From NCBI GenBank assembly GCA_037190625.1, contig JBBCJP010000008.1:716-64715 (forward strand): a stretch of 64,000 nt of DNA. The letters are read 5' to 3'. Under the pieces are notes generated by a model. The model made no database searches, had not been told where the DNA came from, and saw only the letters and a program-made list of their open reading frames with translations. A program made the translations under genes and the position numbers. Each line of letters opens with the position of its first letter. Position 1 is the first letter of the stretch. Shown here one piece after another: positions 48,733 through 63,807 of the stretch. Origin of the DNA: Alphaproteobacteria bacterium (GTDB taxonomy: Bacteria; Pseudomonadota; Alphaproteobacteria; Sphingomonadales; Sphingomonadaceae).

Positions 48733-48855
48733 CGCTCTTCCCCCGACATCGGCGCCGCGTGACCATGCCGAAAGACCGTGGCGACCGGATTGTTTCTTTG
48801 CCGCCTTACCGGAATTTCGTTCCCGATACTATTGCCGGGGGTTCGATACGGCCCG

Positions 48856-49761
48856 CTATTCGCCGACGTCTTTGCCGGAGCGCTGCGCCGCAGGAATCGC
48901 GCCGATCGCCATCAGCAGCAGCGTGCCGCCGATCCCGCCGCACATGAAGGTGAAGAGCAAGCCGAGCAGGGTCATCGCGAAATAGGTGTCGCGTTGGCCA
49001 TTCTCGCCGTCCCGGAGCAGGTAATGGGGCCTCGCGATCGGCACGCCGCTGCGCTCCAGCGCGATCCGGGCATAAGCGGGCAGGCCGTTCTCGATCAGGT
49101 AGCCCTCCGCCGTTTCCGGCTCCGCGGCCCGCGCCTCCGGCCGGCCGTTGTAGGAGCGTTCCAGGAAGAGAATGATTGGCGCCTCGCCACTTGTGCCCTC
49201 ACTTCCCTTCGTCCCCGTGCCGGGCCGGAAGCCGCCATAGAGCCAGTAACGCTCGCCGCCGCGCAGCGATTCGTGGAAGCCGACGACCGCGCCGATGTCG
49301 CGCACGCCCGTGATCGCGACACGTCCCTCCGGCACCGCGCCGCGCGCCAGGTCTTCCGGAGAGAGCAAGGCGGCCGCTTCCTGCCCGTCCGGCGCCCGCG
49401 CCGCCCGGACGCCGCCGGTTACCGCCATCGCCAGAAACCCGGCGGCGAGGCCGAGCAGGACGACGCCGTAGCGGCGATACAGGAGCCGTCGCGCTGCCTC
49501 GCCTTGTTCGGCCATGGCATGTTCGAACCGGAACACTGCGCCCCACAGCACCCAGATCGAAGGAAGCGTGAGGATCAGGATCAGGAAGAGGATGTCCGCG
49601 CCCAGAATGCTGCCGGTGCGCAGGCTATATTCGGTCTCGATCCAGGCGATCGGCCCCTGTCCGGTCAGCTTGGCCCAGATGCTGGCGAGCACCACCAGGG
49701 CGAGCCAGGCCAGCGCCAGCCATGTTCCCGGCCGCGCCGCGCTCCTCTCGTTCTTCGCCAT
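48856..49761 (-). CDS. Hypothetical membrane protein
   Basis: Three N-terminal TM segments, soluble domain, C-terminal TM; start ATG 49761. Confidence 0.7.
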   Translation of the reverse strand: MAKNERSAARPGTWLALAWLALVVLASIWAKLTGQGPIAWIETEYSLRTGSILGADILFLILILTLPSIWVLWGAVFRFEHAMAEQGEAARRLLYRRYGVVLLGLAAGFLAMAVTGGVRAARAPDGQEAAALLSPEDLARGAVPEGRVAITGVRDIGAVVGFHESLRGGERYWLYGGFRPGTGTKGSEGTSGEAPIILFLERSYNGRPEARAAEPETAEGYLIENGLPAYARIALERSGVPIARPHYLLRDGENGQRDTYFAMTLLGLLFTFMCGGIGGTLLLMAIGAIPAAQRSGKDVGE

Positions 49762-49884
49762 CGCACGTCCCCCCGAACGCCGTCCCTCGCAGCCAAGCGC
49801 GAACACGGCAGATCGTCAAGCCGCCCTTGCGCTTCGCCCGCGCGCCGCCATGATGGCGGGCGGAGCAGGATGATCGGAGGATTC

Positions 49885-50331
49885 ATGCGCATCACCATAG
49901 TCGCGACCGCGGCGGCCCTGCTGGCGCTCGCCGGCTGCGAGGGCGGTACGCCCGCGCCGAAGGGCAATGCGGCCGCACCCGCCGCCGAGGCCAATGCCGT
50001 GGCGGACGCCGCGCCCGATCCGGCCAATGAGGCGTCCCTGCGCGCGCTGCTGCCGCCTTATCCCGGCGCCACCCGGGTGCGCGACGGGCTCGGCGGCGGC
50101 GGGACCAGCGGGTCGTTCGCCTTCGCCACAAGCGATCCGACCCGGCCGGTGATCGATTTCTACGCCGCCGCCGCGCGGCGCGCAGGCTATGCGGTGGAGG
50201 TCCACGAGCCTGTCGGCATCGCCTTGTCGATGACCGCGACCAATGCCGAGGGCGCCCTCGCCAACGTCACAGCCAGCCGCGTCGGCCAGGTGACCGAAGT
50301 GCAGGCAATGGCTTCGCTCGGCACGCGCTAG
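49885..50331 (+). CDS. Lipoprotein of unknown function
   Basis: SD GGAGG, lipobox LAGC, Ala/Pro linker, LPPYPGA..F...D....VIDFY domain. Confidence 0.75.
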   Translation: MRITIVATAAALLALAGCEGGTPAPKGNAAAPAAEANAVADAAPDPANEASLRALLPPYPGATRVRDGLGGGGTSGSFAFATSDPTRPVIDFYAAAARRAGYAVEVHEPVGIALSMTATNAEGALANVTASRVGQVTEVQAMASLGTR

Positions 50332-50373: not shown

Positions 50374-50838
50374 CTAGCGCGCGATCGCCTCGGCGAAGCG
50401 GGCGTTGTTGACGAAGCCCAGGCGGGTCACGCCGGCACGCTGGACGTCGGCGAGAATCTCGTCGACCAGCTCGTAACGCGCGGCGCCGTCGGCATCGAGG
50501 TTAAGCGCTGGCTGGGCAGGATCGGCGGCGAGCACGGCCAGCCGGCCGCGCAGCTCCTCCCGCGCAACGACGCGTCCGTCCCAAAGGGCCTGCCCGGCGG
50601 CGTCGATGTCGAGCCGGTGAACGGGCCTGGTGTCGGCGGGGCCGGGAACGGGCGGCGGCAGGTCGAGCGGCACCTTATGGGTGCCGAGCGGGATTGCGAC
50701 GATGAACATGATCAACAAAACCAGCATCATGTCGATCAACGGCGTCGTATTGATCGCGGCGATCGGCGGATGGCTGTCCGGCCGATAGCGGAACGGCGCG
50801 CGGTTCCGGCGGGAGGAGGCGGGGCGGGCTGCTGTCAT
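50374..50838 (-). CDS. exbD: ExbD/TolR family protein (no adjacent exbB)
   Basis: INTTPLIDMMLVLLIMF signature; SD AAGGAGG before ATG 50838. Confidence 0.9.
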   Translation of the reverse strand: MTAARPASSRRNRAPFRYRPDSHPPIAAINTTPLIDMMLVLLIMFIVAIPLGTHKVPLDLPPPVPGPADTRPVHRLDIDAAGQALWDGRVVAREELRGRLAVLAADPAQPALNLDADGAARYELVDEILADVQRAGVTRLGFVNNARFAEAIAR

Positions 50839-50852
50839 GGCGGTCCTCCTTG

Positions 50853-50874
50853 ATGATATGTAGCAACATATCAT
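50853..50874. promoter_or_regulatory. Perfect 9-4-9 palindrome, candidate operator of exbD
   Basis: ATGATATGT-AGCA-ACATATCAT directly upstream of the SD. Confidence 0.7.
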
Positions 50875-50923
50875 ACAATTGGCCGCGGCGAAATGCCTGT
50901 TGCGCGCCCTTGCCGCTCTGTCT

Positions 50924-51637
50924 TTAGAGTTCGCCCAGACCGGCCGCGCACCAGGGATTGGGGACGGTGCTCCATGGCCGCGCGAGCCCATCGGCGATCA
51001 TCGAGTCTCCCAGCGACTGGCCGCCGCGCGAGGCGATGCGCAGCTTGCGTCCCTCGCTGTCGGCGTCCCGGCCGAAGGATTCGCTGAGCTGGAAGGGGCC
51101 GGCGCGCAGCAGCGTGGCCAGCCGCTGCGCCGCGCGGGCGCCCAGCATGGCTTCATGCGGGCAGGGTGCACGCATGTTGGGCGTGTGGATATCGGCCAGC
51201 CGAATGCGGTCGCCATGCAGGGCGAAGCTGCCGCCGTCGATCGGCCGGACAGTGTCGGGACGCACCGTGACGCCGCGCAGCAGCGAGGTCGCGCCGGCGG
51301 TGCCCCCACCGCCAATGTCGTTGCGTGCAGCCCGGGGGCGAAGCGCCTCTGCCGCCGGATCGGCGGTGGCAGCCGCCGCCGGTGCGGGCGGGCGGATGGG
51401 CGCGGCCTTGTTCTCCGGCGCATCGCTGGCGAGCATGCCGAAGCCGAAGCCGCTGCGTGTGCCTTCGAACAGGATGATGGCGAGCGCCAGGCCGATGCCG
51501 ATCATCATGCGCAGTTCGCGGCCGTTGAAGACCGCGTTGCCGGTGCGGATGCGTTCGTCCTGGCGACGACCATTCTGGTCGATCCGCCGGCCGGAACGGT
51601 CGCGCGCGACCATATAGGGATCCCAGTCCTTGCCCAT
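50924..51637 (-). CDS. Thermonuclease-like protein with degenerate active site
   Basis: IDGGSF, IRLADIHTPN, DSEGRKLR, MIADGLARPW align to the intact paralog at 46468-47052. Confidence 0.75.
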   Translation of the reverse strand: MGKDWDPYMVARDRSGRRIDQNGRRQDERIRTGNAVFNGRELRMMIGIGLALAIILFEGTRSGFGFGMLASDAPENKAAPIRPPAPAAAATADPAAEALRPRAARNDIGGGGTAGATSLLRGVTVRPDTVRPIDGGSFALHGDRIRLADIHTPNMRAPCPHEAMLGARAAQRLATLLRAGPFQLSESFGRDADSEGRKLRIASRGGQSLGDSMIADGLARPWSTVPNPWCAAGLGEL

Positions 51638-51786
51638 GGACCGGCCGATAGCAGGCTTGTCCTACCAACCTCCTAACGCGCCATTTACCCTGCCGGCGAG
51701 CGGCCGACGGGAAACAAGCCGTCTTCTGCATCGTTATTGCGCGCGGGGTCCAGTGTATCGGGCCCGTTGCCCGGAAGGAGCATAAC

Positions 51787-52308
51787 ATGCGTAAGATGAT
51801 TCTGGCCGCCGCGATGGCGGCAATCACGGTGCCTCTCGCCGCCGCCCCGGCCGAGGCGCAAGGGCGCAACGAGCGTCGTGCCGAGCGCGACTGCGAGCGC
51901 GAACTGCGCCGTGCCGACAATCGCCGCGAATATCGCCGCGAACTGGCCGAGTGCCGCCGCGAAATCGCCCAGGCGCGCAACCGCGACTGGCGCCAGTACA
52001 ATCGCTACGATTACAATCGGCCGCCGCCGGGCGGCGCCTATTATGCCGACGATTATTATCGCGACGCGCGCTATTATCGCGAGCGGCGGCTGACCCGGAA
52101 CGATCGGATTTATCGCGGCCGTGACGGCCGTTATTATTGCCGTCGCAGCGACGGCACGACCGGTCTCATCATCGGTGCCGGCGTCGGTGCGCTGCTTGGC
52201 AACGCGCTGGACGGCGGACGCTCCAGCCTGCTCGGCACATTGATCGGCGCGGGCGTCGGCGGTGTCGCGGGCCGCGAGATCGAACGCGGCAACGTCCGCT
52301 GCCGGTAA
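51787..52308 (+). CDS. Secreted Arg/Asp/Tyr-rich protein with glycine-zipper 2TM domain
   Basis: Signal peptide, YRGRDGRYYCRRSDGTTGLIIGAGVGALLG..., C-terminal VRCR. Confidence 0.85.
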   Translation: MRKMILAAAMAAITVPLAAAPAEAQGRNERRAERDCERELRRADNRREYRRELAECRREIAQARNRDWRQYNRYDYNRPPPGGAYYADDYYRDARYYRERRLTRNDRIYRGRDGRYYCRRSDGTTGLIIGAGVGALLGNALDGGRSSLLGTLIGAGVGGVAGREIERGNVRCR

Positions 52309-52394
52309 ACCTCCGGTGAACGTTCCGGTCGCGCCCGGTTCAGGCAAGCCCGCCTAGGATCGGGCGCGAGCGGGACGGATATGGGAGTAGGATC

Positions 52395-52712
52395 ATGCGT
52401 ACCATCCTGATTGCCGCCGCGATCGGCATGCTGGGCGTCGCCTTGCCGGCAGCCCCGGCCAGTGCCCAGCATTGGCGCGGCGACCGCCACGATTATCGCG
52501 ATTATCGCCGCGATGTCGCCCGGGCGCAGCGCGAATGCCAGCGCGACTTGAGGCGCGCCGACAGCCGCCGCGAATACCGCCGCGCTCAGCGCGAATGCCG
52601 CCGCGAGATCGCGCAGGCGCAGCGTGGCTATCGTTACGACAGGGGCCGCCATTACGGACCGCCGCGCTCCGGCTATCGCTGGGACGGTTACCGCTGGCGC
52701 TCGCGTTGGTAG
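52395..52712 (+). CDS. Secreted Arg-rich paralog of the N-terminal half of the preceding gene
   Basis: Signal peptide; RECQRDLRRADSRREYRR..RECRREIAQA matches RDCERELRRADNRREYRRELAECRREIAQA. Confidence 0.8.
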   Translation: MRTILIAAAIGMLGVALPAAPASAQHWRGDRHDYRDYRRDVARAQRECQRDLRRADSRREYRRAQRECRREIAQAQRGYRYDRGRHYGPPRSGYRWDGYRWRSRW

Positions 52713-52878
52713 CGCGGGCACCAGCCTTCATCGCCATGGGCTCGCCTGGCGGCCGATGACGTCCCGTCGGCCATTCTCCTATCGGGGGATGGCCGGCAGC
52801 GGACCCTCATCGCTTTTGCCTGTTCCTGACCTGCGCGATTGCCGCTAGACTTGGCACTTCTCTGGCGGAGGGAAGGCC

Positions 52879-53880
52879 ATGGTTCTCGACTGGATCAAGA
52901 AGCAGTTCGTCGATGTCATCGACTGGACGGACGAGCCGGGCGTGCTCGCCATCCGCTATCCGATGCAGGATCGCGAGATCCAGAATGGCGCGCAACTGAC
53001 GGTGCGCGAAGGCCAGATGGCGGCCTTCGTCAACGAGGGCCGCGTCGCCGACGTATTCGGGCCCGGCCTCTACACGCTGGAAACGGCGAACCTGCCGATC
53101 CTCACCTCGCTGATGAACTGGGACAAGGCCTTTGCCTCACCGTTCAAATCCGACGTCTACTTCTTCTCGCAGCGCGAACAGATCAACCTGAAATGGGGCA
53201 CCGCCCAGCCCGTGACGGTGCGCGACAAGGAGTTCGGCGCGATCCGCCTGCGCGCGTTCGGCGCCTATTCCTTCCGGATCGACGATGTCGCGCCCTTCTC
53301 GGTGAAGCTGATGGGCTCGCTGGAGCGGATGACGACGGAGGAGCTGGAGCCCCAACTCCGCGCCGCGATCGCCACCGCGATCGCGACCGCGCTGGGCGGC
53401 AGCGACGTGCCGTTCCTCGATCTCGCCGCCAATCAGACTCTGATGTCCGAAAGGCTCCAGGAAGCGGTCGGTGCCTCCTTCGCGCAATGGGGGCTCGCGG
53501 TGCCGAGCTTCTTCGTCGAAAGCGTTTCGCTGCCCGAGGAGGTGCAGGCCTATCTCGACAAGTCGAGCTCGATGCGGGTGATCGGCGATCTCGACAGATA
53601 TGCCAAGTTCCAGGCCGCCGAGGCGATCGAGACGGCGGCGGCCAATCCCGGTGGGGTTGCCGGGATCGGAGCCAGCCTCGCGGCGGGCGCGGCGATCGGG
53701 CAGTCGATGGCGGCGGGACTCACGCCAGGCGCCCCCGCGGCGCCGGCAGCGGCCTCGGCCGCGCCGGAGGAAGATGCGTTCGCCCAGGTGGAAAAGCTGC
53801 ACAAGCTGCTCACCATCGGCGCGATCACGCAGGAGGAGTTCGACGCCAAGAAGGCCGAGCTGCTGAGCCGGATCCGCTGA
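52879..53880 (+). CDS. SPFH/Band-7 (YdjI-like) protein with C-terminal SHOCT
   Basis: QLTVREGQMAAFVNEG, FGPGLYTLET.NLP.L, KWGT..P; ends LHKLLTIGAITQEEFDAKKAELL. Confidence 0.88.
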   Translation: MVLDWIKKQFVDVIDWTDEPGVLAIRYPMQDREIQNGAQLTVREGQMAAFVNEGRVADVFGPGLYTLETANLPILTSLMNWDKAFASPFKSDVYFFSQREQINLKWGTAQPVTVRDKEFGAIRLRAFGAYSFRIDDVAPFSVKLMGSLERMTTEELEPQLRAAIATAIATALGGSDVPFLDLAANQTLMSERLQEAVGASFAQWGLAVPSFFVESVSLPEEVQAYLDKSSSMRVIGDLDRYAKFQAAEAIETAAANPGGVAGIGASLAAGAAIGQSMAAGLTPGAPAAPAAASAAPEEDAFAQVEKLHKLLTIGAITQEEFDAKKAELLSRIR

Positions 53881-53887
53881 CCGCCAG

Positions 53888-54562
53888 ATGCAGAAGGTCT
53901 CCTGCCCCAATTGCGGCGCGGAGGTCTCGTTCCGCTCGCCCGCTCTGCCCTCGCGTGTGTGCGACTATTGCCGCACCATCCTGGTGCGCTCGGGCGGCGG
54001 GATCGAGGCGGTCGGCAAGGCGGCGGTGCTGCCCTTCGACGTCAGCCCGATCGGCATCGGCACGCGCGGCACGTTCGACGGGCGCGGCTTCGACGTGGTC
54101 GGCCGGGTGCGCTGGGGCTGGACGGACGGGTCGTGGAACGAATGGCTGCTGCTGTTCGGCGACGGCTCGGACGCCTGGCTGGGCGAGGCGATGGGCCAAT
54201 TCATGTTGACCGAGGAGCGCGCGATCGGCGACGTGCAGGGCGATGAGGGCATCCGCCGGCTCATCCTGGGCGGCCGGGTGATGATCGGGACGCGGGTGCG
54301 CATCGACGACGAGACCTATGTGGTCTCCGATGCGCGCGATGCGACCTGCATCGCCGCGGAAGGCGAGCTGCCCTTCTCGCCCAGGCCCGGCTGGACGATC
54401 CACAGCGTCGATTTCCGCTCCGTGTCCGGCCGCTGTGCCAGCCTGCAGCGCGAGGAGACGCTGTCGAGCTTCTATCAGGGCCGCTATGTGACGCTGGACG
54501 AGCTGGTGCCGCGCAATCTGCGTCCCATAGAGGGCTGGCCGATGCCGGCTTATGGCGGCTGA
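53888..54562 (+). CDS. Zn-ribbon + DUF4178 protein
   Basis: CPNCG...CDYC, IGTRGTFDGRGF.VVGR, WNEWLL..DG..AWL. Confidence 0.8.
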   Translation: MQKVSCPNCGAEVSFRSPALPSRVCDYCRTILVRSGGGIEAVGKAAVLPFDVSPIGIGTRGTFDGRGFDVVGRVRWGWTDGSWNEWLLLFGDGSDAWLGEAMGQFMLTEERAIGDVQGDEGIRRLILGGRVMIGTRVRIDDETYVVSDARDATCIAAEGELPFSPRPGWTIHSVDFRSVSGRCASLQREETLSSFYQGRYVTLDELVPRNLRPIEGWPMPAYGG

Positions 54563-55922
54563 GATGACCGACGGGGGGCTTCAGGAAATGGGCATCGAGG
54601 CACCGCCGCCTCCCCCGCCCGCGCCGGCGATCCGGGCGCTGTCCTGTCCGGGTTGCGGCGGATCGATCAGCGTGCGGGCGGCGGGCTATACCGTCACCGT
54701 CGCCTGCCAATATTGCGGCTCCATCCTCGACGTCGCCAATCCCGAGGTGCGGCTCCTCACGGAATATCATCTGGCGATCCAGGAGCTGGAGATTCCGCTC
54801 GGCACGCGCGGCACGCTGCGCGGGATCGAATGGGAGGTGATCGGCTATCTCAGCCGGTCCGAACGCGGCAGCTATCCCTGGGAAGAATATCTGCTGTTCA
54901 ATCCTTATCAGGGTTATCGCTGGCTGGTGACCAACGGGCGCGGCTGGTCGTTCGGCGAAATGCTGACCCGCGCGCCGGACTGGGGGCATCACGGCCCCCG
55001 GCTCGACGGCCACGATTACGCGCCCTTCTTCGTCGATGGCCAGGCGCAGGTCGATTATGTGCTGGGCGAATTCTACTGGCGGGTTGCGGTCGGCGAGGAG
55101 GTCTCGACCGACGATTATGTCCGCCCCGGCTATATGCTGTCGCGGGAGGCCAATGAGCAGGAGGTGAGCTGGACGCTCTCCACCCTGCTCGACGGCGACG
55201 AGATCCGCCGCGCCTTCGGCGTCCGGCCGCCATCCAATCCCTGGCCGCCATTGCCGCACCAGCCCTCGCCCTATCGCGACGTCATGCGCAAGGGCGGCAA
55301 GATCGGCCTCGCCGTGCTCGCTTTCCTGTTGCTGCTGACTATGGTGATGGGCAGTGGCGGGCAGCCGCTGCTGACCGAAACGCTGCCGGTCGATCTCGCC
55401 GGCACGACGCGAACCGCGACTTTGGGGCCGATCACGGTGACGCGGCCCTATCAGCTTGTCGCGATCCGCGCCCAGGTGCCGGGGCTGGAAAATGGCTGGA
55501 TCGACCTCGATTATGCCCTGGTCGACCGCGCAACCCAGGCCTCCTATCAGGCCTATGGAGCGGCGGAGCGTTATTCGGGGCGCGATTCCGACGGCGACTG
55601 GACGGAAGGCAGCCGCCGCAAGACGGTCAAGCTCGCCTCGGTCCCCGCCGGCACCTACGATCTCGTCATCGATTATGCCGGCAATGGCTGGCGGGACTTT
55701 TCCCGGCCCTATGCCAACAGCCAGACGGGCGGATCGGTGATCATCGAGGTCAGCCGCGCGGCGGCCTTCCCTTCGAACCTCATCCTCGCCGTGATCCTGA
55801 TCCTCGCGCCGCTCGTCTATTTCTTCTTCCGCCATCTGTCCTTCGAGCAGGCCCGGCAGGACGAAAGCGATATCGGCCGCACCGGCCTCGCCAAATTGTT
55901 CACTTCGGAGGATGACGACTGA
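54552..55922 (+). CDS. Zn-ribbon + DUF4178 membrane protein
   Basis: CPGCG...CQYC, IPLGTRG.L.G.EWEVIGY, WEEYLLFNPYQGYRWL, GEFYWRV, two TM segments. Confidence 0.8.
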   Translation: MAAEMTDGGLQEMGIEAPPPPPPAPAIRALSCPGCGGSISVRAAGYTVTVACQYCGSILDVANPEVRLLTEYHLAIQELEIPLGTRGTLRGIEWEVIGYLSRSERGSYPWEEYLLFNPYQGYRWLVTNGRGWSFGEMLTRAPDWGHHGPRLDGHDYAPFFVDGQAQVDYVLGEFYWRVAVGEEVSTDDYVRPGYMLSREANEQEVSWTLSTLLDGDEIRRAFGVRPPSNPWPPLPHQPSPYRDVMRKGGKIGLAVLAFLLLLTMVMGSGGQPLLTETLPVDLAGTTRTATLGPITVTRPYQLVAIRAQVPGLENGWIDLDYALVDRATQASYQAYGAAERYSGRDSDGDWTEGSRRKTVKLASVPAGTYDLVIDYAGNGWRDFSRPYANSQTGGSVIIEVSRAAAFPSNLILAVILILAPLVYFFFRHLSFEQARQDESDIGRTGLAKLFTSEDDD

Positions 55923-56068
55923 TGGACCGCCGGACCTTCCTCTACGGCCTGTGGTCGCTGGCGACGGCGGGCCTGTTCGTGACGAGCACGATCTACGCAT
56001 ATTCGCCTTTCGCCGATGGTGGCCGCGTCGCGCCGCGCGCCGGCGTCTACGGCCCAACCCACAAATAG
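55922..56068 (+). CDS. 48-aa single-TM peptide ending in HK
   Basis: Manual translation MDRRTFLYGLWSLATAGLFVTSTIYAYSPFADGGRVAPRAGVYGPTHK; TGATG coupling to the upstream gene; its stop overlaps the SD of DUF350. Confidence 0.75.
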   Translation: MDRRTFLYGLWSLATAGLFVTSTIYAYSPFADGGRVAPRAGVYGPTHK

Positions 56069-56077
56069 GAGACGGAC

Positions 56078-56290
56078 ATGATCGCCAACACCGCCGCCAT
56101 CTTGAATTCGCTGATCTTCGCGGGGATCGGCATCGTCGTGCTGGTTCTCGGCTTCTTCATCCTCGACATCCTGACGCCCGGCAAATTGTGGGAGGAGATC
56201 AACCACAAGCAGAACCGCGCCGTCGCGACCTTCGCCGGCGCGATCGCGATCGGCCTCGCCATCATCGTCGCCGCCGCCATTCACGGCTGA
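56078..56290 (+). CDS. DUF350 small membrane protein
   Basis: DILTPGKLWEEI..KQNRAVA..AGAIAIGLAIIVAAAIHG. Confidence 0.9.
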   Translation: MIANTAAILNSLIFAGIGIVVLVLGFFILDILTPGKLWEEINHKQNRAVATFAGAIAIGLAIIVAAAIHG

Positions 56291-56323
56291 GGCAAGGACA
56301 GGTTTTCATCGCCCTTGCCTGAC

Positions 56324-57850
56324 ATGAACGATACGTCCCGGCCGCCGCTGCGCGTCTCGGCGCCGACCGCCGCCTTGCTCGCCTCCGCCTTCGTGGTGGC
56401 GACCTGCGGCCTCGTCTATGAATTGCTGGCGAGCACCCTGGCCAGCTACCTGCTCGGCGACAGCGTCACCCAATTCTCCACCGTCATCGGCACCTATCTG
56501 TTCGCGATGGGGATCGGGAGCTGGTTCTCCCGCTATGTGAAGCGCAACGAGCTCGCCATCTTCGTGCGCGTCGAGCTGCTGATCGCCCTGATTGGCGGCT
56601 TTTCCGCGGCGGGGCTGTTCATGCTCTTCCCGATCATAGATCATTTCCGGGTCGCGCTCTATTCGATCGTCTTCGCGATCGGCTTCTTCGTCGGGCTCGA
56701 AATCCCGCTGCTGATGCGGATTCTCAAGGATTACGATTTCCGCGAGGTCGTCTCCAGCGTGCTGACCTTCGATTATGTCGGCGCGCTGTTCGCGGCCCTG
56801 CTCTTCCCGCTCGTGCTGATGCCCTATCTCGGCATGATCCGGACCGGCTTCCTGTTCGGCATTCTCAACGCCGCCATCGCGCTCGCTTTGCTCGTAGTCC
56901 TGCCGCGCGGCACGCGCATGTATCTGGAAAAGATCGCCTCCGTCCTGGTGCTCGCCATCCTGATCGCCGGCTTCGCCGGCTCGGAGCGGCTGCAGCGCTG
57001 GGCCGAGGTGGCGAGCTATCAGGAGCCGGTCATCTACGCCGAATCCAGCCGCTTCCAACGCATCGTGCTGACCCGCAGCGGCGACGATCTGCGCCTCTAT
57101 CTCAACGGCAATCTGCAATTCTCCTCGCGCGACGAATATCGCTATCACGAGGCGCTGGTGCATCCGGCGCTGGGCCGGGTGGATCGGCCCGCCAATGTGC
57201 TGATCCTGGGCGGAGGCGACGGGCTGGCGGCGCGTGAGGTGCTACGCCATCCGGAGGTGGAGCGGATCACGCTCGTCGATCTCGATCCGGCGATGACCCG
57301 CTTGTTCGCGCAAAGCCCGATGCTGGCGGCGCTGAACCGGGGATCGCTGTCCGATCCGCGCCTGACCGTCATCAATGCCGACGGCTTCCGCTGGGCGCGC
57401 GACGCGCGCGAGCAATATGACGCGATCATCGTCGATTTTCCCGATCCCGTCGATTTCTCGGTGGGGAAACTTTACACCGAAAGCTTCTACCGGGAGCTTT
57501 CCCGCCTGCTCGCGCCGCACGGCGTCGCGGCGATCCAGAGCACCTCGCCCCTGGTCGCGCCGATCTCCTACTGGACGGTGGTGACGACGCTGGAGGCTGT
57601 GGGCCTGCAGACCCGGCCTTACCATGTCTATGTGCCGAGCTTCGGCGAATGGGGCTTCACCCTGGTCGCGCATCGCCCGATCGGGATGGAGGCGCGGATC
57701 CCGGAGGGCCGCTTCCTCACCCCGGTCATCGCCGAGCGCCTGTTCGATTTCCCCCCCGACATGGCGCGCCGCCCGGCGCCGGTGAACCGGCTCGACAATC
57801 AGGCGCTGGTCCGGGCCTTCTCCGACGAATGGGCGCGCTATGCGGGTTGA
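56324..57850 (+). CDS. Membrane-bound polyamine aminopropyltransferase (SpeE-like)
   Basis: About 7 N-terminal TM segments (CGLVYEL, VLTFDYVGAL), then YQRIV-like FQRIV, LNGNLQFSS.DEYRYHEALVH, GGGDG, VDFPDP. Confidence 0.9.
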   Translation: MNDTSRPPLRVSAPTAALLASAFVVATCGLVYELLASTLASYLLGDSVTQFSTVIGTYLFAMGIGSWFSRYVKRNELAIFVRVELLIALIGGFSAAGLFMLFPIIDHFRVALYSIVFAIGFFVGLEIPLLMRILKDYDFREVVSSVLTFDYVGALFAALLFPLVLMPYLGMIRTGFLFGILNAAIALALLVVLPRGTRMYLEKIASVLVLAILIAGFAGSERLQRWAEVASYQEPVIYAESSRFQRIVLTRSGDDLRLYLNGNLQFSSRDEYRYHEALVHPALGRVDRPANVLILGGGDGLAAREVLRHPEVERITLVDLDPAMTRLFAQSPMLAALNRGSLSDPRLTVINADGFRWARDAREQYDAIIVDFPDPVDFSVGKLYTESFYRELSRLLAPHGVAAIQSTSPLVAPISYWTVVTTLEAVGLQTRPYHVYVPSFGEWGFTLVAHRPIGMEARIPEGRFLTPVIAERLFDFPPDMARRPAPVNRLDNQALVRAFSDEWARYAG

Positions 57851-59453
57851 CCGCCGTGCGGTCGTCGCCGGTCTCGGATTGGCCGGCGCGGTCGCGGCGG
57901 TGGGCCTGGGCTGGCGCGCGACACGCCCCGCGCCGCCCGTCACGACGCTGGCCGGTGCCGACATGGAACGCGGCCATCGCCTGCGAGACGGCGATTTCCC
58001 GGAGCCGTCCGAGACGGAGGAAGCGGGCGTGGTCATCGCCGGCGGCGGCGTTGCCGGGCTGACGGCGGGCTGGGCGCTGGCCGAAGCGGGGTTCGCCGAT
58101 TTCCAGTTGCTCGAGCTGGAGGATGCGGTCGGCGGCAATGCGCGCAGTGGCCGCAACGCCGTCTCCGCCTTTCCGCTCGGCGCCCATTATCTGCCCGTCG
58201 CCAATCGCGAGGCGCGGGCGCTGCGGCACCTGCTCACCCGGCTCGGCATCATCACCGGCGAGGCGGGCGGCGCACCGATCTACGATCCGCTCCAGCTCTG
58301 CGCCGATCTGCAGGAACGGTTGCTCTGGCGGGGAAGCTGGCAGGAGGGCCTGATCCCCCGCACCGGGCTGGAGCTGCGCGATGAAGAACATCTCGCCGCC
58401 TTCGATGCCGCAATGCGCGCTTTCTCCGCCCGCATCGGCGCGGACGGCAAGCCGGCCTTCGCGACGCCGCTCGCCTACAGCTCGCGCGACGCCGATCTGA
58501 TGGCGCTCGACGGAATGAGCTTTGCTTCCTGGCTGGACGAGCAGGGCTGGGACTCGCGCGTGCTGCGTGCACATGTCCGATATGGGATGCGCGACGATTA
58601 TGGCTGCGAGCCGGCCGACGTCTCGGCCTGGGCCGGCATCCATTATTATGCCGGGCGTCGCGGCTGGGCGGCGGGCGAGGCGGCGGACAATGTGCTGACC
58701 TGGCCGGAAGGAAACGACCGGCTGGCGCGCGGCATGGCGGCGCGGTTCAGCGGCCGGATCCGCGCCGGCCGCATCGTCCACCGCCTCACCCGCGAAACCT
58801 CGCACATCCTCGTCGATTCCTTCGACGTCGCCCGCCAGACCACCGTTCGCACCCGCGCCCGCGCCGCGATCCTCGCCATGCCCCGCTTCATCGCCGGCCA
58901 TGTCGCCCAGGAACTGCCGCCGGCACCCGATTTCGGCTACGCGCCCTGGCTGGTCGCCAATGTCACGGTCGATCGGTTGCCCACCGGTCGCGGCGCGCCG
59001 CTCGCCTGGGACAATGTGTCGTCGACCAGCAATTCGCTGGGCTATGTCGTCGCCACCCATCAGGGACCGGCGGCGATCCCCGGCGCCAGCGTCCTCACCT
59101 GGTATCTGCCGCTCTCCGACATGAGCCCCTCGGAAGGCCGCCGCCTGCTGATGGAGCGGTCCGCCGAGGAGTGGCGGGCGCTGGTGACCGACGATCTGCT
59201 CGCCACGAATCCCGATCTGGAGGGCGCGATCCGTTCGGTCGATCTGTGGCGTTGGGGCCATGCGATGATCCGGCCCGTGCCCGGCCTGGTCTGGGGCGCG
59301 GCCGAGGCGGCGGCGCGGGCCGAGCCCCCGCTCTTTCTCGCCCATTCCGATCTGTCCGGACTCTCGCTGTTCGAGGAGGCCCATTATCGCGGGGTGCTGG
59401 CGGCCGAAGGGGCGATGCGTCACCTCGGACATGGCTTTGAAAGCCTGCTATGA
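57840..59453 (+). CDS. FAD-dependent amine-oxidase-like oxidoreductase with RR leader
   Basis: DRRAVV twin-arginine-like leader, GGGVAGL, GGNARSG, PLGAHY, RWGHAM, AHSDLSG.SLFEEA. Confidence 0.85.
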   Translation: MRVDRRAVVAGLGLAGAVAAVGLGWRATRPAPPVTTLAGADMERGHRLRDGDFPEPSETEEAGVVIAGGGVAGLTAGWALAEAGFADFQLLELEDAVGGNARSGRNAVSAFPLGAHYLPVANREARALRHLLTRLGIITGEAGGAPIYDPLQLCADLQERLLWRGSWQEGLIPRTGLELRDEEHLAAFDAAMRAFSARIGADGKPAFATPLAYSSRDADLMALDGMSFASWLDEQGWDSRVLRAHVRYGMRDDYGCEPADVSAWAGIHYYAGRRGWAAGEAADNVLTWPEGNDRLARGMAARFSGRIRAGRIVHRLTRETSHILVDSFDVARQTTVRTRARAAILAMPRFIAGHVAQELPPAPDFGYAPWLVANVTVDRLPTGRGAPLAWDNVSSTSNSLGYVVATHQGPAAIPGASVLTWYLPLSDMSPSEGRRLLMERSAEEWRALVTDDLLATNPDLEGAIRSVDLWRWGHAMIRPVPGLVWGAAEAAARAEPPLFLAHSDLSGLSLFEEAHYRGVLAAEGAMRHLGHGFESLL

Positions 59454-59818
59454 ACGCCGCGATGAATCAGGGGCGCCATCTCATCGCCGATCTCCACGGA
59501 TGCTCGGGACTCGACGATATCGACCTTATCGAGGCCGCTTTGACCGACGCGGCGGTGGCGGCGGGCGCGACATTGCTGGAGATAAGGCTGCACGATTTCG
59601 GCGAGGGCCAGGGCGTCACTGGCGTTGCCCTGCTCGCCGAATCACACATCTCGATCCACTCCTGGCCCGAACATGGCTATGCCGCGATCGACATCTTCCT
59701 GTGCGCCGAATGGCATGACGTGGAGGCGGGGCTGGCGGTGATCTCAGCCGCCCTGCGCGCCGAGAGGATCGACAAGCAGCTGATCGCGCGCGGCGCGATG
59801 GCGACCGCGCCGGCGTGA
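59450..59818 (+). CDS. speD: S-adenosylmethionine decarboxylase proenzyme
   Basis: GRHLIADL, GVTGVALLAESHISIHSWPE.GYAAIDIFLC (ES self-cleavage site). Confidence 0.93.
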   Translation: MNAAMNQGRHLIADLHGCSGLDDIDLIEAALTDAAVAAGATLLEIRLHDFGEGQGVTGVALLAESHISIHSWPEHGYAAIDIFLCAEWHDVEAGLAVISAALRAERIDKQLIARGAMATAPA

Positions 59819-59908
59819 TGGACAGGGCGGGGCACGCGGGCTAAGGGCGACACCGCTCCGCCGGCTTGGGGGTGTCGGCGCAACGATCGCGCGACCTTGG
59901 AGTGTTCG

Positions 59909-60406
59909 ATGAAAGGTGGCCTGGAGGCCGTCTTCCTGGAAAACCGGATGACGTTGCTGCGCTTCCTGCGCGCGCGCGGGGCCGGCGACGCGGCCGAGGA
60001 TTTTCTGCAGGAGGTGTGGATCAAGGCGTCGGCCGGTGCGTCCGGCCCGATCGCTGAGCCGCTCGCCTATCTCTACCGCACCGCCAACAATGTGATGCTG
60101 GATCGCCGCCGCGCCGAAGTCCGCGCAACGCGGCGCGACACCGCCTGGAGCGAGATGGCGGGTGATACTGCGCCGGCGCAAAGCGAGACGCAGCTGATCG
60201 CGCGCGAGCGGCTGGCGGCGGTGGAAACCGTGCTGGCCGCGCTGGGCGATCGCACCGATGCGATCTTCCGTCGCTATCGGTTGGACGGCGTCAGCCAGCG
60301 CGATGTCGCCGCCGAATTCGGGATCAGTCTGTCGGCGGTCGAGAAGCATCTACAAAAGGCCTATCGCGCGCTGGCCGATTTGCGGGAGCGGCTCGATGCG
60401 GAATGA
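59909..60406 (+). CDS. FecI-like ECF sigma factor
   Basis: AEDFLQEVW, AYLYRTANNVMLD, IFRRYRLDG.SQRDVA..FGIS.SAVEKH. Confidence 0.9.
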   Translation: MKGGLEAVFLENRMTLLRFLRARGAGDAAEDFLQEVWIKASAGASGPIAEPLAYLYRTANNVMLDRRRAEVRATRRDTAWSEMAGDTAPAQSETQLIARERLAAVETVLAALGDRTDAIFRRYRLDGVSQRDVAAEFGISLSAVEKHLQKAYRALADLRERLDAE

Positions 60407-60424
60407 CCGGGGCGGCGGCGTCAT
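60397..60424 (+). promoter_or_regulatory. Candidate ECF promoter, copy 1 (before fecR-like gene)
   Basis: TGCGGA-N16-CGTCAT. Confidence 0.4.
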
Positions 60425-60443
60425 GCTGCGGGAAGGGCTGTAG

Positions 60444-61388
60444 ATGGCGTATGTGACGGACGAGATCAGGGATGCGGCGGCGGCATGGCATGTCCGGCTG
60501 GGTGGCGATGCCGCGTCCGCCGACTGGGCGGCCTTCACCGCCTGGCTGGAGGCCGATCCGGCGCATGCGCAAGCCTATGACCTGGTAGCGGTCGCCGACG
60601 CCGAGCTCGACGATCTGCCGCTCACGCCCGCGCCGCCGACACCCGCTTATGCCGAACCGCGCCGGCCGAGCCGTCGCGCTTTCCTGGGCTGGGGCGGGGC
60701 GGCGATCGCGGCTGCCGCGGTCGGCGCGATCACCTTGATGCCCGCCGGCGGCACCTACGAAATCGTCACCGCGCCCGGCGAGCGCCGCGTCATCGCACTC
60801 GATGAAGGCAGCCGGATCGAGATCAATGGGGATAGCCGGCTGGTGCTCGACCGTGGCGATGCGCGGTTCGCCCGGGTCGAGCGGGGCGAGGCCCTGTTCA
60901 CCGTCGTCCATGACGATGCGCGCCCGTTCCGTGTCGAAGCGGGCGCAGCGCGGCTGATCGATCTGGGCACGATCTTCAACGTCATCCAAGACGGCGACCG
61001 CACCGAAGTCGCCGTTTCGGAGGGCGAGGTGGAATGGCGTCGCGCCAATGCGCGGGTGAACCTGACGCCCGGCATGGCGCTTAGCCAGCGCGGCACGGAG
61101 GATCCGGTCGTGACCCGCCCGGCCATCGAATCGATCGGTGGCTGGCGGGAGGGCAGGCTAAGCTATTCGGCGGCGCGCTATGATGCGGTTGCGGCTGATC
61201 TGTCGCGCAATCTCGGCGCGCGGGTGTCGCTGGACGATGCGGCCGCCGCGCGCCGGTTCAGCGGCGTGATCGTGATCGATCGCGATCCGGGCGTGACGCT
61301 CGACCGCGCCGGCGCGCTGCTTGAGCTTGGCGCCCGGCGCGAAGGCGACGGCTGGCGATTGACGGTGGAGCGCGGTGCGCGGCGCTAG
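60444..61388 (+). CDS. FecR-like anti-sigma / signal transducer
   Basis: AAAWHVRL..F.AWL..DPAH..AY, TAPGERR...LDEGS.I..N, GEALFTV.HD..RPF.V, WREGRL. Confidence 0.92.
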   Translation: MAYVTDEIRDAAAAWHVRLGGDAASADWAAFTAWLEADPAHAQAYDLVAVADAELDDLPLTPAPPTPAYAEPRRPSRRAFLGWGGAAIAAAAVGAITLMPAGGTYEIVTAPGERRVIALDEGSRIEINGDSRLVLDRGDARFARVERGEALFTVVHDDARPFRVEAGAARLIDLGTIFNVIQDGDRTEVAVSEGEVEWRRANARVNLTPGMALSQRGTEDPVVTRPAIESIGGWREGRLSYSAARYDAVAADLSRNLGARVSLDDAAAARRFSGVIVIDRDPGVTLDRAGALLELGARREGDGWRLTVERGARR

Positions 61389-63807
61389 CCTGATCCTGCC
61401 CGCCGCGATCCTGGTCTGCGCTGCGTCCGCGGAAGCTTCGTCGCGCCACCATATCGATCTGCCCGCCGGCCGCCTCGGCGACGCGCTGGTGGCGCTGGGC
61501 CAGCAGGCCGGGATCAGCGTGGGCGTGGCCGATGCAGCCCTTGCCGATCGCCGCGTCGCGCGGCTGCGCGGCCGGATGACGGTCAACGACGCGCTCGAGC
61601 GGTTGACCCGGGGAACCGGTGCGCGCGCCGTCGCCACCGATGCCCGCACCTGGCGCGTCGTGCGCGCTCCGGCGCCGCGTTACGCCGCCCGGCCGCAGCG
61701 CCGGACGCCGCCGCCACCGCAGCCCCGCTTGGAGGAGATCGAACAGGCGGACATCGTCATCACCGCGTCCAAGCGCGCCTTCCGCCTTGCCTCCTTTCCC
61801 GGCTCCGTGATGTTCGCATCCGGCGAGGATCCGATGGCCGCCGCGCATGGGCGCGGCACGGAGGGGCTGGTCGCGACCTTGCCCGGCCTCAACTCCACTC
61901 ATCTCGGCACCGGTCGCAACAAGCTGTTCATCCGCGGCATCGCCGATTCGAGCTTCAACGGCCCGACCCAGGCGACGGTCGGACAATATCTCGGCGAGAC
62001 GCGGCTGAACTACAACACGCCGGACCCGAACCTGCACCTGCACGATATCGACCGGATCGAAGTGCTGCCGGGGCCGCAGGGCACGCTCTACGGTGCCGGC
62101 TCGCTCGGCGGCATCCTGCGCATCGTTCCTAATGCGCCGCGCATGGGCATCGTCCAGGGCTCGGTGTCGATCGGCGCCGCCTTCACCCAGCATGGCGATC
62201 CTGGCGGCGAGGCGGCGGCGGTGCTGAACCTGCCGATCGGCGAAGCGCTGGCATTGCGCGTCGTCGGCTATGGCGCGCGCGAGGGCGGCTATATCGACGA
62301 CAGCCTGCGTGGGCTCGACGACGTCAATCGCACCGATATCCAGGGCGGCCGTGCTCGGCTGCGGGCCGAGGTTGGCGACTGGGCGATCGGCCTGGGCGTC
62401 GCCGGTCAGCGCATCCGGGGCAGGGATGGCCAGTTCGCCGATCGCGACGCCCCGCCGCTGACCCGCGCCAGCCCGATCGCCGAGGATTATTCGAACGACT
62501 ATCTTCTCGGCGACATCGTGGTGGAACGCGACTGGGGCAATGGCCTGCGTTTCGTCTCGACCGCGGGCATGGTTCGCCAGACGCTCGACGAACGTTACGA
62601 TTCCACCCGGCCGGGCGGCCCGGTCACCGCCTATCACCAGACGAATCGCCTCACCCTCCTGTCCGCAGAAAGCCGGCTGTCGCGCTCCGGCCGGGATGGC
62701 ACGGGCTGGTTGATCGGCGCCAGCTTCATCTCCAACCGCTCGGAGATTTCGCGGGCATTGGGCAATCCCGATGCGCCTGCGCCGATCGCCGGAGTGCGCA
62801 ACAGCGTCGACGAGATCACCGCCTTCGGCGAGGCCACGATCGGTATCCGTGACGGCATCACCGCGACGTTTGGCGGCCGGCTCACCCACAGCCGCCTGTC
62901 GGGCGGTGTGCTCGACGCTCCGATGACCTTCCTCGCGATGCTGCGCGAATTGCGCGCGCAGCGCGACGAGACGGTCTTTCTGCCCTCGGTCGCGCTCGCC
63001 GCGCGGGCGAATGACGATCTGCTCCTCTTCGCCCGCTACCAGCAGGGCTTCCGGCCCGGCGGGCTCGCGGTCACCTCGCCCTTCATCGCCCGGCTGGTGA
63101 ACGGCGCGGTCGTGACGACGGAATCGATCGAGCCACTGCCCGCCGGCGCGATCGCGGTCGGCCGTTTCGAGAATGATCGCGTAGCGACGATGGAGGCGGG
63201 CCTGCGTCATGGCGCGCCCGGCATGGGCCGCTTCGATCTCGCCGTCGCCTTGGCCTATACGCGCTGGACCGATATCCAGGCCGATATCGTCAATCCGTTC
63301 GGTTTCCAGACCACGTCCAACATTGGCGATGGGCGGATCTTCACGCTCGATCTGCAGGTGGGCTGGCGCCCCGTGCCGGGCCTCAATCTCGAGGCGGCAA
63401 TCGTGCTCAATGACAGCCTGGTCACCAATCCGGCGCCCAGCATCGTCATCACCCCGCGCGCGCCTCTGCCCAATGTCGCGCGGGTCAATTTCCATCTGGG
63501 CGCGGATTACAGCGTCGAGATCGCGCCGGACGCGGCGCTGCGGCTGTGGAGCTCGGCCCGCTATGCCGGGACGTCTCGGCTTGGCATCGGCCCGATCCTG
63601 GGCGAGGAGCAGGGCGACTGGGTCGATATCGGCGCCGGCGCGCGGCTCGAACGCGGCCGCCATGCCCTTACCTTGGGCATGACCAATATCCTCGATGCGG
63701 AGGGCAACCGGTTCGCGATGGGGTCGCCCTTCACGCTGGCGCTGCGCCGCCAGATCACGCCGCTGCGCCCGCGCACGCTGCGCGTCGGCTGGGAAGTGCG
63801 TTTCTAG
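61375..63807 (+). CDS. TonB-dependent receptor with N-terminal signalling (STN) domain
   Basis: Signal peptide, IDLPAG.L..AL..LGQQAG STN domain, IVITASKR TonB-box region, DIDRIEVLPGPQGTLYG, C-terminal F. Confidence 0.93.
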   Translation: MRGASLILPAAILVCAASAEASSRHHIDLPAGRLGDALVALGQQAGISVGVADAALADRRVARLRGRMTVNDALERLTRGTGARAVATDARTWRVVRAPAPRYAARPQRRTPPPPQPRLEEIEQADIVITASKRAFRLASFPGSVMFASGEDPMAAAHGRGTEGLVATLPGLNSTHLGTGRNKLFIRGIADSSFNGPTQATVGQYLGETRLNYNTPDPNLHLHDIDRIEVLPGPQGTLYGAGSLGGILRIVPNAPRMGIVQGSVSIGAAFTQHGDPGGEAAAVLNLPIGEALALRVVGYGAREGGYIDDSLRGLDDVNRTDIQGGRARLRAEVGDWAIGLGVAGQRIRGRDGQFADRDAPPLTRASPIAEDYSNDYLLGDIVVERDWGNGLRFVSTAGMVRQTLDERYDSTRPGGPVTAYHQTNRLTLLSAESRLSRSGRDGTGWLIGASFISNRSEISRALGNPDAPAPIAGVRNSVDEITAFGEATIGIRDGITATFGGRLTHSRLSGGVLDAPMTFLAMLRELRAQRDETVFLPSVALAARANDDLLLFARYQQGFRPGGLAVTSPFIARLVNGAVVTTESIEPLPAGAIAVGRFENDRVATMEAGLRHGAPGMGRFDLAVALAYTRWTDIQADIVNPFGFQTTSNIGDGRIFTLDLQVGWRPVPGLNLEAAIVLNDSLVTNPAPSIVITPRAPLPNVARVNFHLGADYSVEIAPDAALRLWSSARYAGTSRLGIGPILGEEQGDWVDIGAGARLERGRHALTLGMTNILDAEGNRFAMGSPFTLALRRQITPLRPRTLRVGWEVRF

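Follow-up and report, generated by a model that had tools for sequence, protein, structure and literature searches.

The stretch of DNA analysed in this study, referred to as the window, comprises 64,000 nucleotides (nt) of an alphaproteobacterial genome (assembly GCA_037190625.1, contig JBBCJP010000008.1, positions 716 to 64,715 of the forward strand). At positions 52879-59818 the window carries eight open reading frames (ORFs) on the + strand, all co-oriented, which by gene spacing form one operon. Among the products are an aminopropyltransferase fused to transmembrane (TM) helices (TM-SpeE), an S-adenosylmethionine (SAM) decarboxylase (SpeD), a flavin amine oxidase-fold protein and a micropeptide ending in His-Lys. 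Here we describe the genes, their conservation and their predicted arrangement at the membrane, and weigh which amine the operon might aminopropylate.

The first gene (52879..53880, +) encodes a protein of 333 amino acids (aa) with a Band_7_1 domain (YdjI-type SPFH; PF13421, 252.7 bits), a Gly/Ala-rich segment and a C-terminal SHOCT domain (PF09851, 31 bits against a cut-off of 27). It is followed by two genes for proteins with Zn-ribbon and DUF4178 (PF13785), the first soluble (53888..54562, +; 224 aa, 59.1 bits), the second with two TM helices (54552..55922, +; 456 aa, 55.4 bits). The His-Lys micropeptide (55922..56068, +; 48 aa) precedes a DUF350 protein of the YjfL family with two TM segments (56078..56290, +; 70 aa; PF03994, 55.6 bits). 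TM-SpeE, a 7TM::aminopropyltransferase of the PRK03612 class, is encoded at 56315..57850 (+; 511 aa), the oxidase-fold protein with its twin-arginine leader at 57840..59453 (+; 537 aa) and SpeD at 59450..59818 (+; 122 aa).

The intergenic gaps from gene 1 to gene 8 measure 7, -11, -1, 9, 24, -11 and -4 nt. Gene 6 starts with TTG at 56315; a start at the ATG at 56324 would widen the preceding gap to 33 nt. G+C content is about 63-72% across the eight genes and reveals no compositional break. A promoter and terminator scan of the operon gave nothing beyond shuffled expectation, so that the limits of the transcription unit are drawn from gene spacing alone. Rfam, run over 51500-60500 with a limit of E <= 0.1, matched neither a riboswitch nor RNA of another kind, be it within the operon or ahead of it. 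An earlier note on this DNA had described eight co-oriented genes with small gaps or overlaps, with which ORFs and spacing agree, and its domain calls for all genes are each upheld by Pfam and NCBIfam scans. The His-Lys label it gave to the small peptide corresponds to the C-terminus of the 48-aa ORF. As it had stated, no ornithine or arginine decarboxylase is present among the eight genes; a Lys/Orn decarboxylase homologue lies on another contig.

Co-conservation was surveyed in 62 oxidase-anchored loci of about ten lineages, in all of which the sequence before the oxidase gene spans 6.5 kb or more. These loci belong to the best 80 of at least 600 oxidase profile matches in species-representative genomes and were searched with iterated hidden Markov models built from the window proteins. 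TM-SpeE was found in 61 of the 62 loci, DUF350 and DUF4178 in 58 each, Band-7 in 48 and SpeD in 45. The gene immediately before the oxidase is TM-SpeE in 58/62 loci (66/72 by a looser flank test), and the order Band-7, DUF4178, DUF4178, DUF350, TM-SpeE, oxidase is nearly constant. Since this order recurs across phyla, the operon is more than a chance arrangement. The earlier note had asked for such a survey and had named accessory genes that are not co-conserved as a finding that would speak against its proposal; the survey reveals that accessory and enzyme genes are strongly kept together in different phyla.

Operons of this family occur very widely. The oxidase matches among species-representative genomes, at least 600 in number, stem from Proteobacteria, Nitrospirae, Melainabacteria, Verrucomicrobia, Bacteroidota, Leptospiraceae, Acidobacteria and Actinobacteria. 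The best 80 loci comprise Alpha- and Betaproteobacteria and a few metagenome-assembled genomes (MAGs) labelled as Gamma- and Deltaproteobacteria, as well as Nitrospirae, Melainabacteria (including Vampirovibrio), Verrucomicrobia, Chitinophaga, Flavobacterium, Leptospiraceae, Acidobacteria and Acidimicrobiia. Sampling across the phylum detected a full-length PRK03612 protein in 43 of 401 genomes. TM-SpeE is present in 3/16 sampled genomes of the window's own family, and no SpeE homologue was found at E <= 1e-20 in the other 13.

TM-SpeE matches NF002956/PRK03612 from end to end (660.8 bits, cut-off 472), a family that NCBIfam labels 'polyamine aminopropyltransferase'. It stays below the cut-off both of the canonical speE equivalog TIGR00417 (136.4 bits vs 249.55) and of NF037959, 'fused MFS/spermidine synthase' (33 bits vs 40). 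The Spermine_synth domain (PF01564, 128 bits) covers residues 275-451. About seven TM helices fused to an aminopropyltransferase with intact GGGDG and DFPDP motifs had been noted before; the AlphaFold2 model (predicted local distance difference test score, pLDDT, 92.8) contains exactly seven TM helices (16-47, 50-74, 79-104, 111-137, 142-172, 174-195 and 203-221), then a linker helix and the catalytic domain (about 236-511), and both motifs (aa 299-303 and 374-378) are present and invariant in 116 homologues. The YHE motif is intact as well, and so is the acidic residue that canonical SpeE has after strand 2. Asp residues 302, 324, 356, 374 and 377 are invariant in 71 homologues, and D322 is kept in at least 90%. 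The closest structures to the catalytic domain are the triamine/agmatine aminopropyltransferase of T. thermophilus, SpeE of P. calidifontis and thermospermine synthase. Foldseek matched the catalytic domain alone, and no solved full-length TM-SpeE or TM domain was among its hits.

Seven residues inside the modelled TM-helix ranges (E36, E87, E129, D153, Y35, Y154 and N185) are shared by 90% or more of the homologues, as would be expected if a cation, for instance decarboxylated SAM (dcSAM) or a polyamine, passed along them. Summed over 116 homologues, the loops on the side of the N-terminus hold 1.3, 2.9, 3.0 and 3.0 Lys plus Arg residues, those on the side of the catalytic domain 0.2, 0.9 and 1.0. 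Because of these loop charges, the positive-inside rule places the N-terminus in the cytoplasm and the SpeE domain outside. We consider this orientation, which is unexpected for an enzyme requiring dcSAM, to be somewhat more probable than its reverse. A literature search on the topology of Rv2601 found nothing useful.

The oxidase begins with MRVDRRAVVAGLGLAG, a twin-arginine leader; the Tat-type motif together with the hydrophobic stretch reads VDRRAVVAGLGLAG, and the window protein has no lipobox. A Tat-like motif was scored in 67/86 oxidase homologues; on visual inspection, most of the others have variants of the type (S/T)R(K/x)xFL. A lipobox Cys received a score in 43/86. The motif takes the form (S/T)RRxFL in Proteobacteria and an R-K or single-Arg form in Melainabacteria, Bacteroidota and Leptospiraceae. 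The RR leader pointed out earlier on this flavoprotein is thus borne out by the twin arginines and by the motif's conservation, and the oxidase is predicted to be exported and to work outside the cytoplasm. PF13450 (NAD_binding_8), for the FAD-binding GxGxxG, and PF01593 (Amino_oxidase, 36 bits) score above their cut-offs. Foldseek matched the AlphaFold2 model (pLDDT 91.4) with probability 1.00 to 8p84, 2yg3, monoamine oxidases A and B (MAO-A/B) and spermidine dehydrogenase (SpdH); the top matches 8p84/9h5p, 2yg3, MAO-A/B and SpdH reach TMq 0.60-0.66 at 15-21% identity. Within the flavin amine-oxidase fold it is a distinct subfamily, and motifs of its own (GHxLR, GAHYLP, VSAWAG.HY, AWDNV, FAHSD) are invariant in it.

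SpeD lacks a signal peptide and matches PF02675 (113 bits) and TIGR03330 (116.1 bits, cut-off 75.65). Its motif LLAESHISIHSWPE...FLC (LLAESHISIH..FLC) holds the Glu-Ser self-processing site, the His and the Cys. SpeD is assigned as a class 1b AdoMet decarboxylase and, by family membership only, would supply dcSAM; a change of function to ornithine or arginine decarboxylase is known for this type of enzyme (PMC10407285).

The micropeptide consists of an N-terminal TM helix, a Gly/Pro-rich tail and a C-terminal His-Lys. Neither Pfam nor NCBIfam has a model that matches it, and public gene calls name it 'hypothetical protein' only. A position-based scan examined, in 67 assessable oxidase-anchored loci, the interval that separates DUF350 from the gene of the membrane DUF4178 protein. 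An ORF of 39-90 aa with an N-terminal TM helix and a C-terminal His-Lys precedes DUF350 in 64 of them; looser limits add one more (65/67), and the peptide occurs across phyla. The tails differ between lineages (GPTHK, GPGQFHK, RFYHK, SSYHK, SGGSHK) and the final two residues are constant. Among the small ORFs of all loci, 73/9,961 end in His-Lys, and 67 of these 73 contain a hydrophobic 17-mer, as the cluster peptides do; the background for a TM helix plus C-terminal His-Lys was put at about 0.1%. A profile search had recovered the peptide in 26/62 loci, which would have confined it to Alphaproteobacteria, a view abandoned since the position-based scan found it across phyla. That it is fused onto DUF350 or DUF4178 in other phyla was likewise rejected, as a comparison of C-termini showed no fusion. 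The N-terminal flank of the helix is the more positive one by net charge in 46/51 micropeptides; because of this, the N-terminus is placed inside and the tail is predicted to face the periplasm.

Tails ending in Lys are also found in related operons of other composition. Alphaproteobacterial TM-SpeE operons without an oxidase (L025, L026, L029) carry TM peptides of 59-80 aa before DUF350 that end in ...FGR(I/V)K, with the terminal Lys and without the penultimate His. In gammaproteobacterial PspA-type operons, a lipoprotein of about 310-370 aa with a tail ending in GK precedes a DUF350 gene of about 300 aa in 8/8 loci of this subtype (L021, L030, L034, L035, L038, L039 with 576 aa, L043, L044). 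A lipobox is visible in at least L030, L034, L043 and L044. The GK tails are Ser/Arg/Asn-rich, of low complexity, and end in RRGK, SRGK, FGGK or RSGK; the tail of a lipoprotein is extracytoplasmic by nature. The penultimate His is confined to oxidase-carrying operons. Across these operons the terminal Lys goes with TM-SpeE and the penultimate His with the oxidase.

The remaining proteins have features of membrane-associated partners. The Band-7/SHOCT protein lacks a signal peptide; presumably it serves in the cytoplasm as a scaffold at the membrane periphery. The 224-aa DUF4178 protein has an N-terminal CxxC...CxxC, and the Zn-ribbon matches in both DUF4178 proteins are weak. In the 456-aa protein, TM helices at about 250-270 and 408-426 bracket a domain of about 136 aa, which hydropathy and flanking charges predict to be periplasmic, with the acidic C-terminal tail in the cytoplasm. 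Between the last TM helix and an acidic tail, its homologues share a conserved cytoplasmic motif, FExxRW(S/A)ESD(Y/F)SPY, of which the protein encoded in the window has a degenerate version (SFEQARQDESD...SEDDD). A single ORF of about 480-740 aa takes the place of the two DUF4178 genes, by fusion, in many Betaproteobacteria, Nitrospirae and Verrucomicrobia (L005, L006, L009, L010, L016, L018 and several of L087-L114), and in L005, L006, L009 and L010 the genes for SpeD, the fused DUF4178, Band-7 and DUF350 are divergent from those for TM-SpeE and the oxidase. The window DUF350 protein ends in ...AAIHG, and nearly all short DUF350 homologues (L074-L124) end in ...A(A/S)AIH(G/S); given a charged loop inside, this C-terminal His would face the periplasm.

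The names on near-identical oxidase homologues identify the host as a Sphingomonas MAG. Profile searches were run on the contigs of its assembly (2.74 Mb, 95% complete). All eight operon genes are single-copy in it, TM-SpeE being the sole Spermine_synth match and SpeD the sole AdoMet_dc. Three decarboxylases of PF02784 were found, namely LysA, an exosortase-associated enzyme and a 396-aa Lys/Orn decarboxylase homologue. The latter, a pyridoxal phosphate-dependent enzyme at C10:65520-66206 (+), has Lys/Orn decarboxylases as its closest solved relatives (5gjm, the best, and 2plj) and is a likely source of putrescine or cadaverine, unlinked to the operon. A search for homospermidine synthase in the host genome gave three weak Sacchrp_dh_NADP matches in ORFs of 343-361 aa.

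The genes flanking the operon on both sides are unrelated to its components. Upstream lie a 517-aa ORF without a Pfam match at E <= 0.001 (48778-50331, +), an ExbD/TolR gene (50374-50991, - strand) and a lipoprotein gene (51787-52308, +) whose product of 173 aa bears a glycine-zipper 2TM domain (Rick_17kDa_Anti). The 570-nt stretch just before the operon (52309-52878) has neither a family match nor an Rfam match. Downstream, an ECF sigma factor gene (59897-60406, +) begins 78 nt past the stop of SpeD, followed by a FecR-type anti-sigma gene (60444-61388, +) and by the gene of a TonB-dependent receptor that bears an STN domain (61375-63807, +). Together, the genes at 59897-63807 look like a FecIRA-type surface-signalling unit.

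From the observed gene content, co-conservation, folds and signal motifs we infer a topology, an acceptor and a physiological role. Our tentative preference, possible rather than probable, is for extracytoplasmic aminopropylation of the Lys at the micropeptide's C-terminus. Cytoplasmic SpeD would make dcSAM, and the 7TM domain of TM-SpeE may serve as a conduit for a cationic molecule via the conserved acidic residues in the membrane. The catalytic domain would sit on the outer face of the inner membrane and move the aminopropyl group to an amine held at the envelope, not to bulk putrescine. The most likely acceptor would be the membrane-anchored His-Lys peptide, through the epsilon-amine of its invariant last residue, Lys, and the Tat-exported flavin amine oxidase might then oxidise the adduct in the periplasm. 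Band-7/SHOCT, the two Zn-ribbon DUF4178 proteins and DUF350 would form the scaffold or regulatory part, stand in for the PspA-CesT dyad of sister operons and couple the reaction to membrane state.

Three independent features suggest that the reaction takes place at the inner membrane's outer face: the oxidase has a Tat leader, the transferase has the loop charges given above, and the orientation of the peptide agrees with the lipoprotein nature of its counterpart in gammaproteobacterial operons. An invariant terminal Lys encoded beside an aminopropyltransferase is most simply explained as its acceptor, and the closest structures to TM-SpeE act on longer or varied amines. The earlier note had proposed aminopropylation of an unusual acceptor, naming the small peptide among the candidates. 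Its interpretation as a whole is partly supported, the membrane-microdomain complex and the stress or defence output that it also proposed being hypothetical. As to the peptide, the proposal gains support from the invariant C-terminal His-Lys; the general idea had already been published (Li et al. 2019, as cited in the passages of PMC11237479 on these operons).

Several points weigh against this preferred reading. The positive-inside rule is statistical. We know of no precedent for a dcSAM-dependent domain outside the cytoplasm; catalysis there would require export of dcSAM and would lose methylthioadenosine (MTA) outside the cell. The position of Asp377 normally binds the second ammonium group of a diamine, which suits a free polyamine more than it suits a Lys at a C-terminus, with the alpha-carboxylate close by. 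Two loci (L012, L017) have TM-SpeE and the oxidase with neither micropeptide nor accessory genes nearby, and in four more (L005, L008, L014, L016) both enzymes are present without a detected micropeptide. Finally, the sole SpeE/SpeD pair of the genome, together with the Lys/Orn decarboxylase, could also serve the ordinary synthesis of spermidine or aminopropylcadaverine.

A bolder version of the peptide reading, which we regard as somewhat unlikely, goes further. Here the ribosomally made micropeptide would have its periplasmic Lys aminopropylated, perhaps repeatedly, the 7TM domain would deliver dcSAM, the oxidase would convert the adduct and the whole would stand under SPFH/Psp-type control. 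If true, no other transferase that uses dcSAM would be known to act extracytoplasmically before TM-SpeE. The oxidase would give, for example, an aldehyde for cross-linking or release, and the system would be a bacterial envelope counterpart of the lysine-polyamine chemistry of the hypusine and silaffin type.

The main rival to modification of the peptide holds that TM-SpeE makes a free tri- or tetra-amine (for example thermospermine, a norspermidine-type product or aminopropylcadaverine) from a diamine or polyamine, its synthesis being coupled to translocation through the acidic 7TM conduit. The exported oxidase would then trim or recycle this polyamine in the periplasm, and the His-Lys peptide and the scaffold would only regulate or gate the process. 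This account strikes us as rather doubtful. It fits the diamine-type acceptor site better than the peptide does: the catalytic domain is closest to thermospermine synthase and to triamine/agmatine enzymes, both acceptor-site Asp residues are kept, and conserved acidic residues in the membrane suit the path of a polycation. Putrescine oxidase and spermidine dehydrogenase are among the folds nearest to the oxidase, as is a monoamine oxidase whose structure was determined with putrescine, and the Lys/Orn decarboxylase encoded elsewhere in the genome supplies a diamine. However, a free product does not account for the invariant Lys at the end of the co-encoded tails, which recurs in three operon architectures, and the link of the penultimate His with the oxidase is equally left without explanation. 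The absence of spermidine from species with such fusions, and the failure of the fusion to complement an E. coli speE mutant, both reported for the clusters described in 2019, speak against it as well.

Ordinary biosynthesis, with SpeD and TM-SpeE making the cell's spermidine from putrescine and with the membrane anchor and the neighbours as incidental, appears improbable. The earlier note had denied that the operon is housekeeping spermidine synthesis. Co-conservation, patchy occurrence in the window's own family (3/16), the exported oxidase and the TIGR00417 score below the cut-off argue for the denial: the family does not depend on TM-SpeE, since 13 of 16 genomes manage without any SpeE homologue at the threshold given above, and across phyla the enzyme comes in strict linkage with DUF350, DUF4178, a His-Lys peptide and the exported oxidase. 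The published hypothesis, as worded in the relevant passages of PMC11237479, also points the opposite way. Nevertheless, the only Spermine_synth and AdoMet_dc proteins of a 95% complete genome, with intact catalytic motifs, the family name 'polyamine aminopropyltransferase' and an ornithine/lysine decarboxylase homologue as diamine source, keep simple synthesis in contention.

Weaker still, and very improbable, is modification of a lipid in the manner of MprF, in which an amine lipid such as phosphatidylethanolamine would be aminopropylated, flipped by the 7TM domain and restored by the oxidase as eraser, so that surface charge is tuned under envelope stress: we know of no aminopropylated lipid, no lipid-binding feature was identified in the proteins, Asp377 and the acidic membrane residues suit a polycation over a zwitterionic lipid, and the Lys-ended tails would go unexplained. 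What speaks for it is, by analogy only, the union of a transferase with a polytopic domain, which recalls other lipid-modifying enzymes, the oxidase being often a lipoprotein at the membrane surface, and the occurrence of the operons in Psp-type or SPFH membrane-stress contexts (PMC11237479, in the passages on these operons). An anti-phage defence system was also considered and rejected, since a PADLOC scan gave only generic matches to a methyltransferase fold and an FAD motif.

Since 2019, the target of the membrane-fused spermidine-synthase-like enzyme with its own SAM decarboxylase has been a question of polyamine biology. A near-universal Lys-ended tail, an exported oxidase and a predicted outward transferase domain open this question to simple experiments, for which the His-Lys peptide offers a direct handle on the operon. 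Should the peptide be the acceptor, the post-translational modification would be new, as would the compartment in which bacteria carry out SAM-derived chemistry, and Psp/SPFH membrane-stress systems would gain a chemical output.

Among known enzymes, canonical SpeE is a soluble protein of about 290 aa, whereas TM-SpeE has 511 aa and seven TM helices. TM-SpeE belongs to NF002956/PRK03612 and is thereby set apart from the 'fused MFS/spermidine synthase' of NF037959. Its catalytic domain resembles ACL5 thermospermine synthase (6bq2), 1uir/3anx and 7xif at 29-32% identity and a root-mean-square deviation of 1.9-2.8 A; YHE, GGGDG and D-x-x-D-P motifs are common to ACL5, the Thermus and Pyrobaculum enzymes and TM-SpeE. 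Those enzymes are soluble and cytoplasmic and act on free polyamines, in contrast to TM-SpeE with its seven helices and its predicted location outside. The oxidase has the same two-domain flavin adenine dinucleotide (FAD) fold as putrescine oxidase (PuO, 2yg3), the monoamine oxidase of Thermoanaerobacterales (8p84/9h5p) and SpdH (7d9j), and differs from them by its own invariant motifs, its conserved Tat leader and its fixed position after TM-SpeE. In hypusine (eIF5A) and in diatom silaffins, the epsilon-amine of lysine carries aminobutyl or oligo-aminopropyl groups from polyamine metabolism. These systems have no sequence relation to the operon, are eukaryotic or archaeal and cytoplasmic or vesicular, and serve as an analogy only.

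Gene clusters of similar content have been noted before. Li, Kurihara, Kim, Liang and Michael reportedly described in 2019 (Biochem J 476:2579) a class 1b AdoMet decarboxylase clustered with a fusion of a membrane domain to a spermidine synthase-like protein and with DUF350; the species bearing the fusion are said to contain no spermidine, and the fusion is said not to complement an E. coli speE mutant. As for those clusters, the acceptor of the window enzyme is likely to be other than putrescine, and the window operon adds the exported oxidase, SPFH/SHOCT, DUF4178 and the His-Lys peptide.

The operon type itself is already published. In their passages on these operons, Ravi et al. 2024 (mSystems, PMC11237479) report 7TM::spermine-synthase, YjfL/DUF350 and DUF4178 together with a PspA-CesT/Tir dyad, mention variants in which band-7 and SHOCT replace the dyad and AdoMet decarboxylase and polyamine oxidase are present, and refer to Li et al. 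2019 on 'aminopropylation of other substrates' than putrescine. The variant takes up one sentence, under the ATP-grasp group, with no example in the tables of the parts concerned (PMC11237479). The earlier note knew of no defined biochemistry for the cluster, and in this it was right: our literature searches found none, and the passages of PMC11237479 on the operons give none. The window operon corresponds to the PspA-free type, with band-7 and SHOCT, DUF4178, DUF350, 7TM::Spermine_synth, AdoMet decarboxylase and amine oxidase in one co-directional operon, and none of its eight products matched PspA or CesT in the Pfam scan. The His-Lys peptide goes unmentioned in those passages, which place a lipoprotein with a low-complexity tail, 'Ctha_1186', at the equivalent position in Shewanella (PMC11237479). 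The GK-tail lipoprotein of the PspA-type operons described above is probably this 'Ctha_1186' lipoprotein; it parallels the His-Lys micropeptide in its position before DUF350 and in its terminal Lys.

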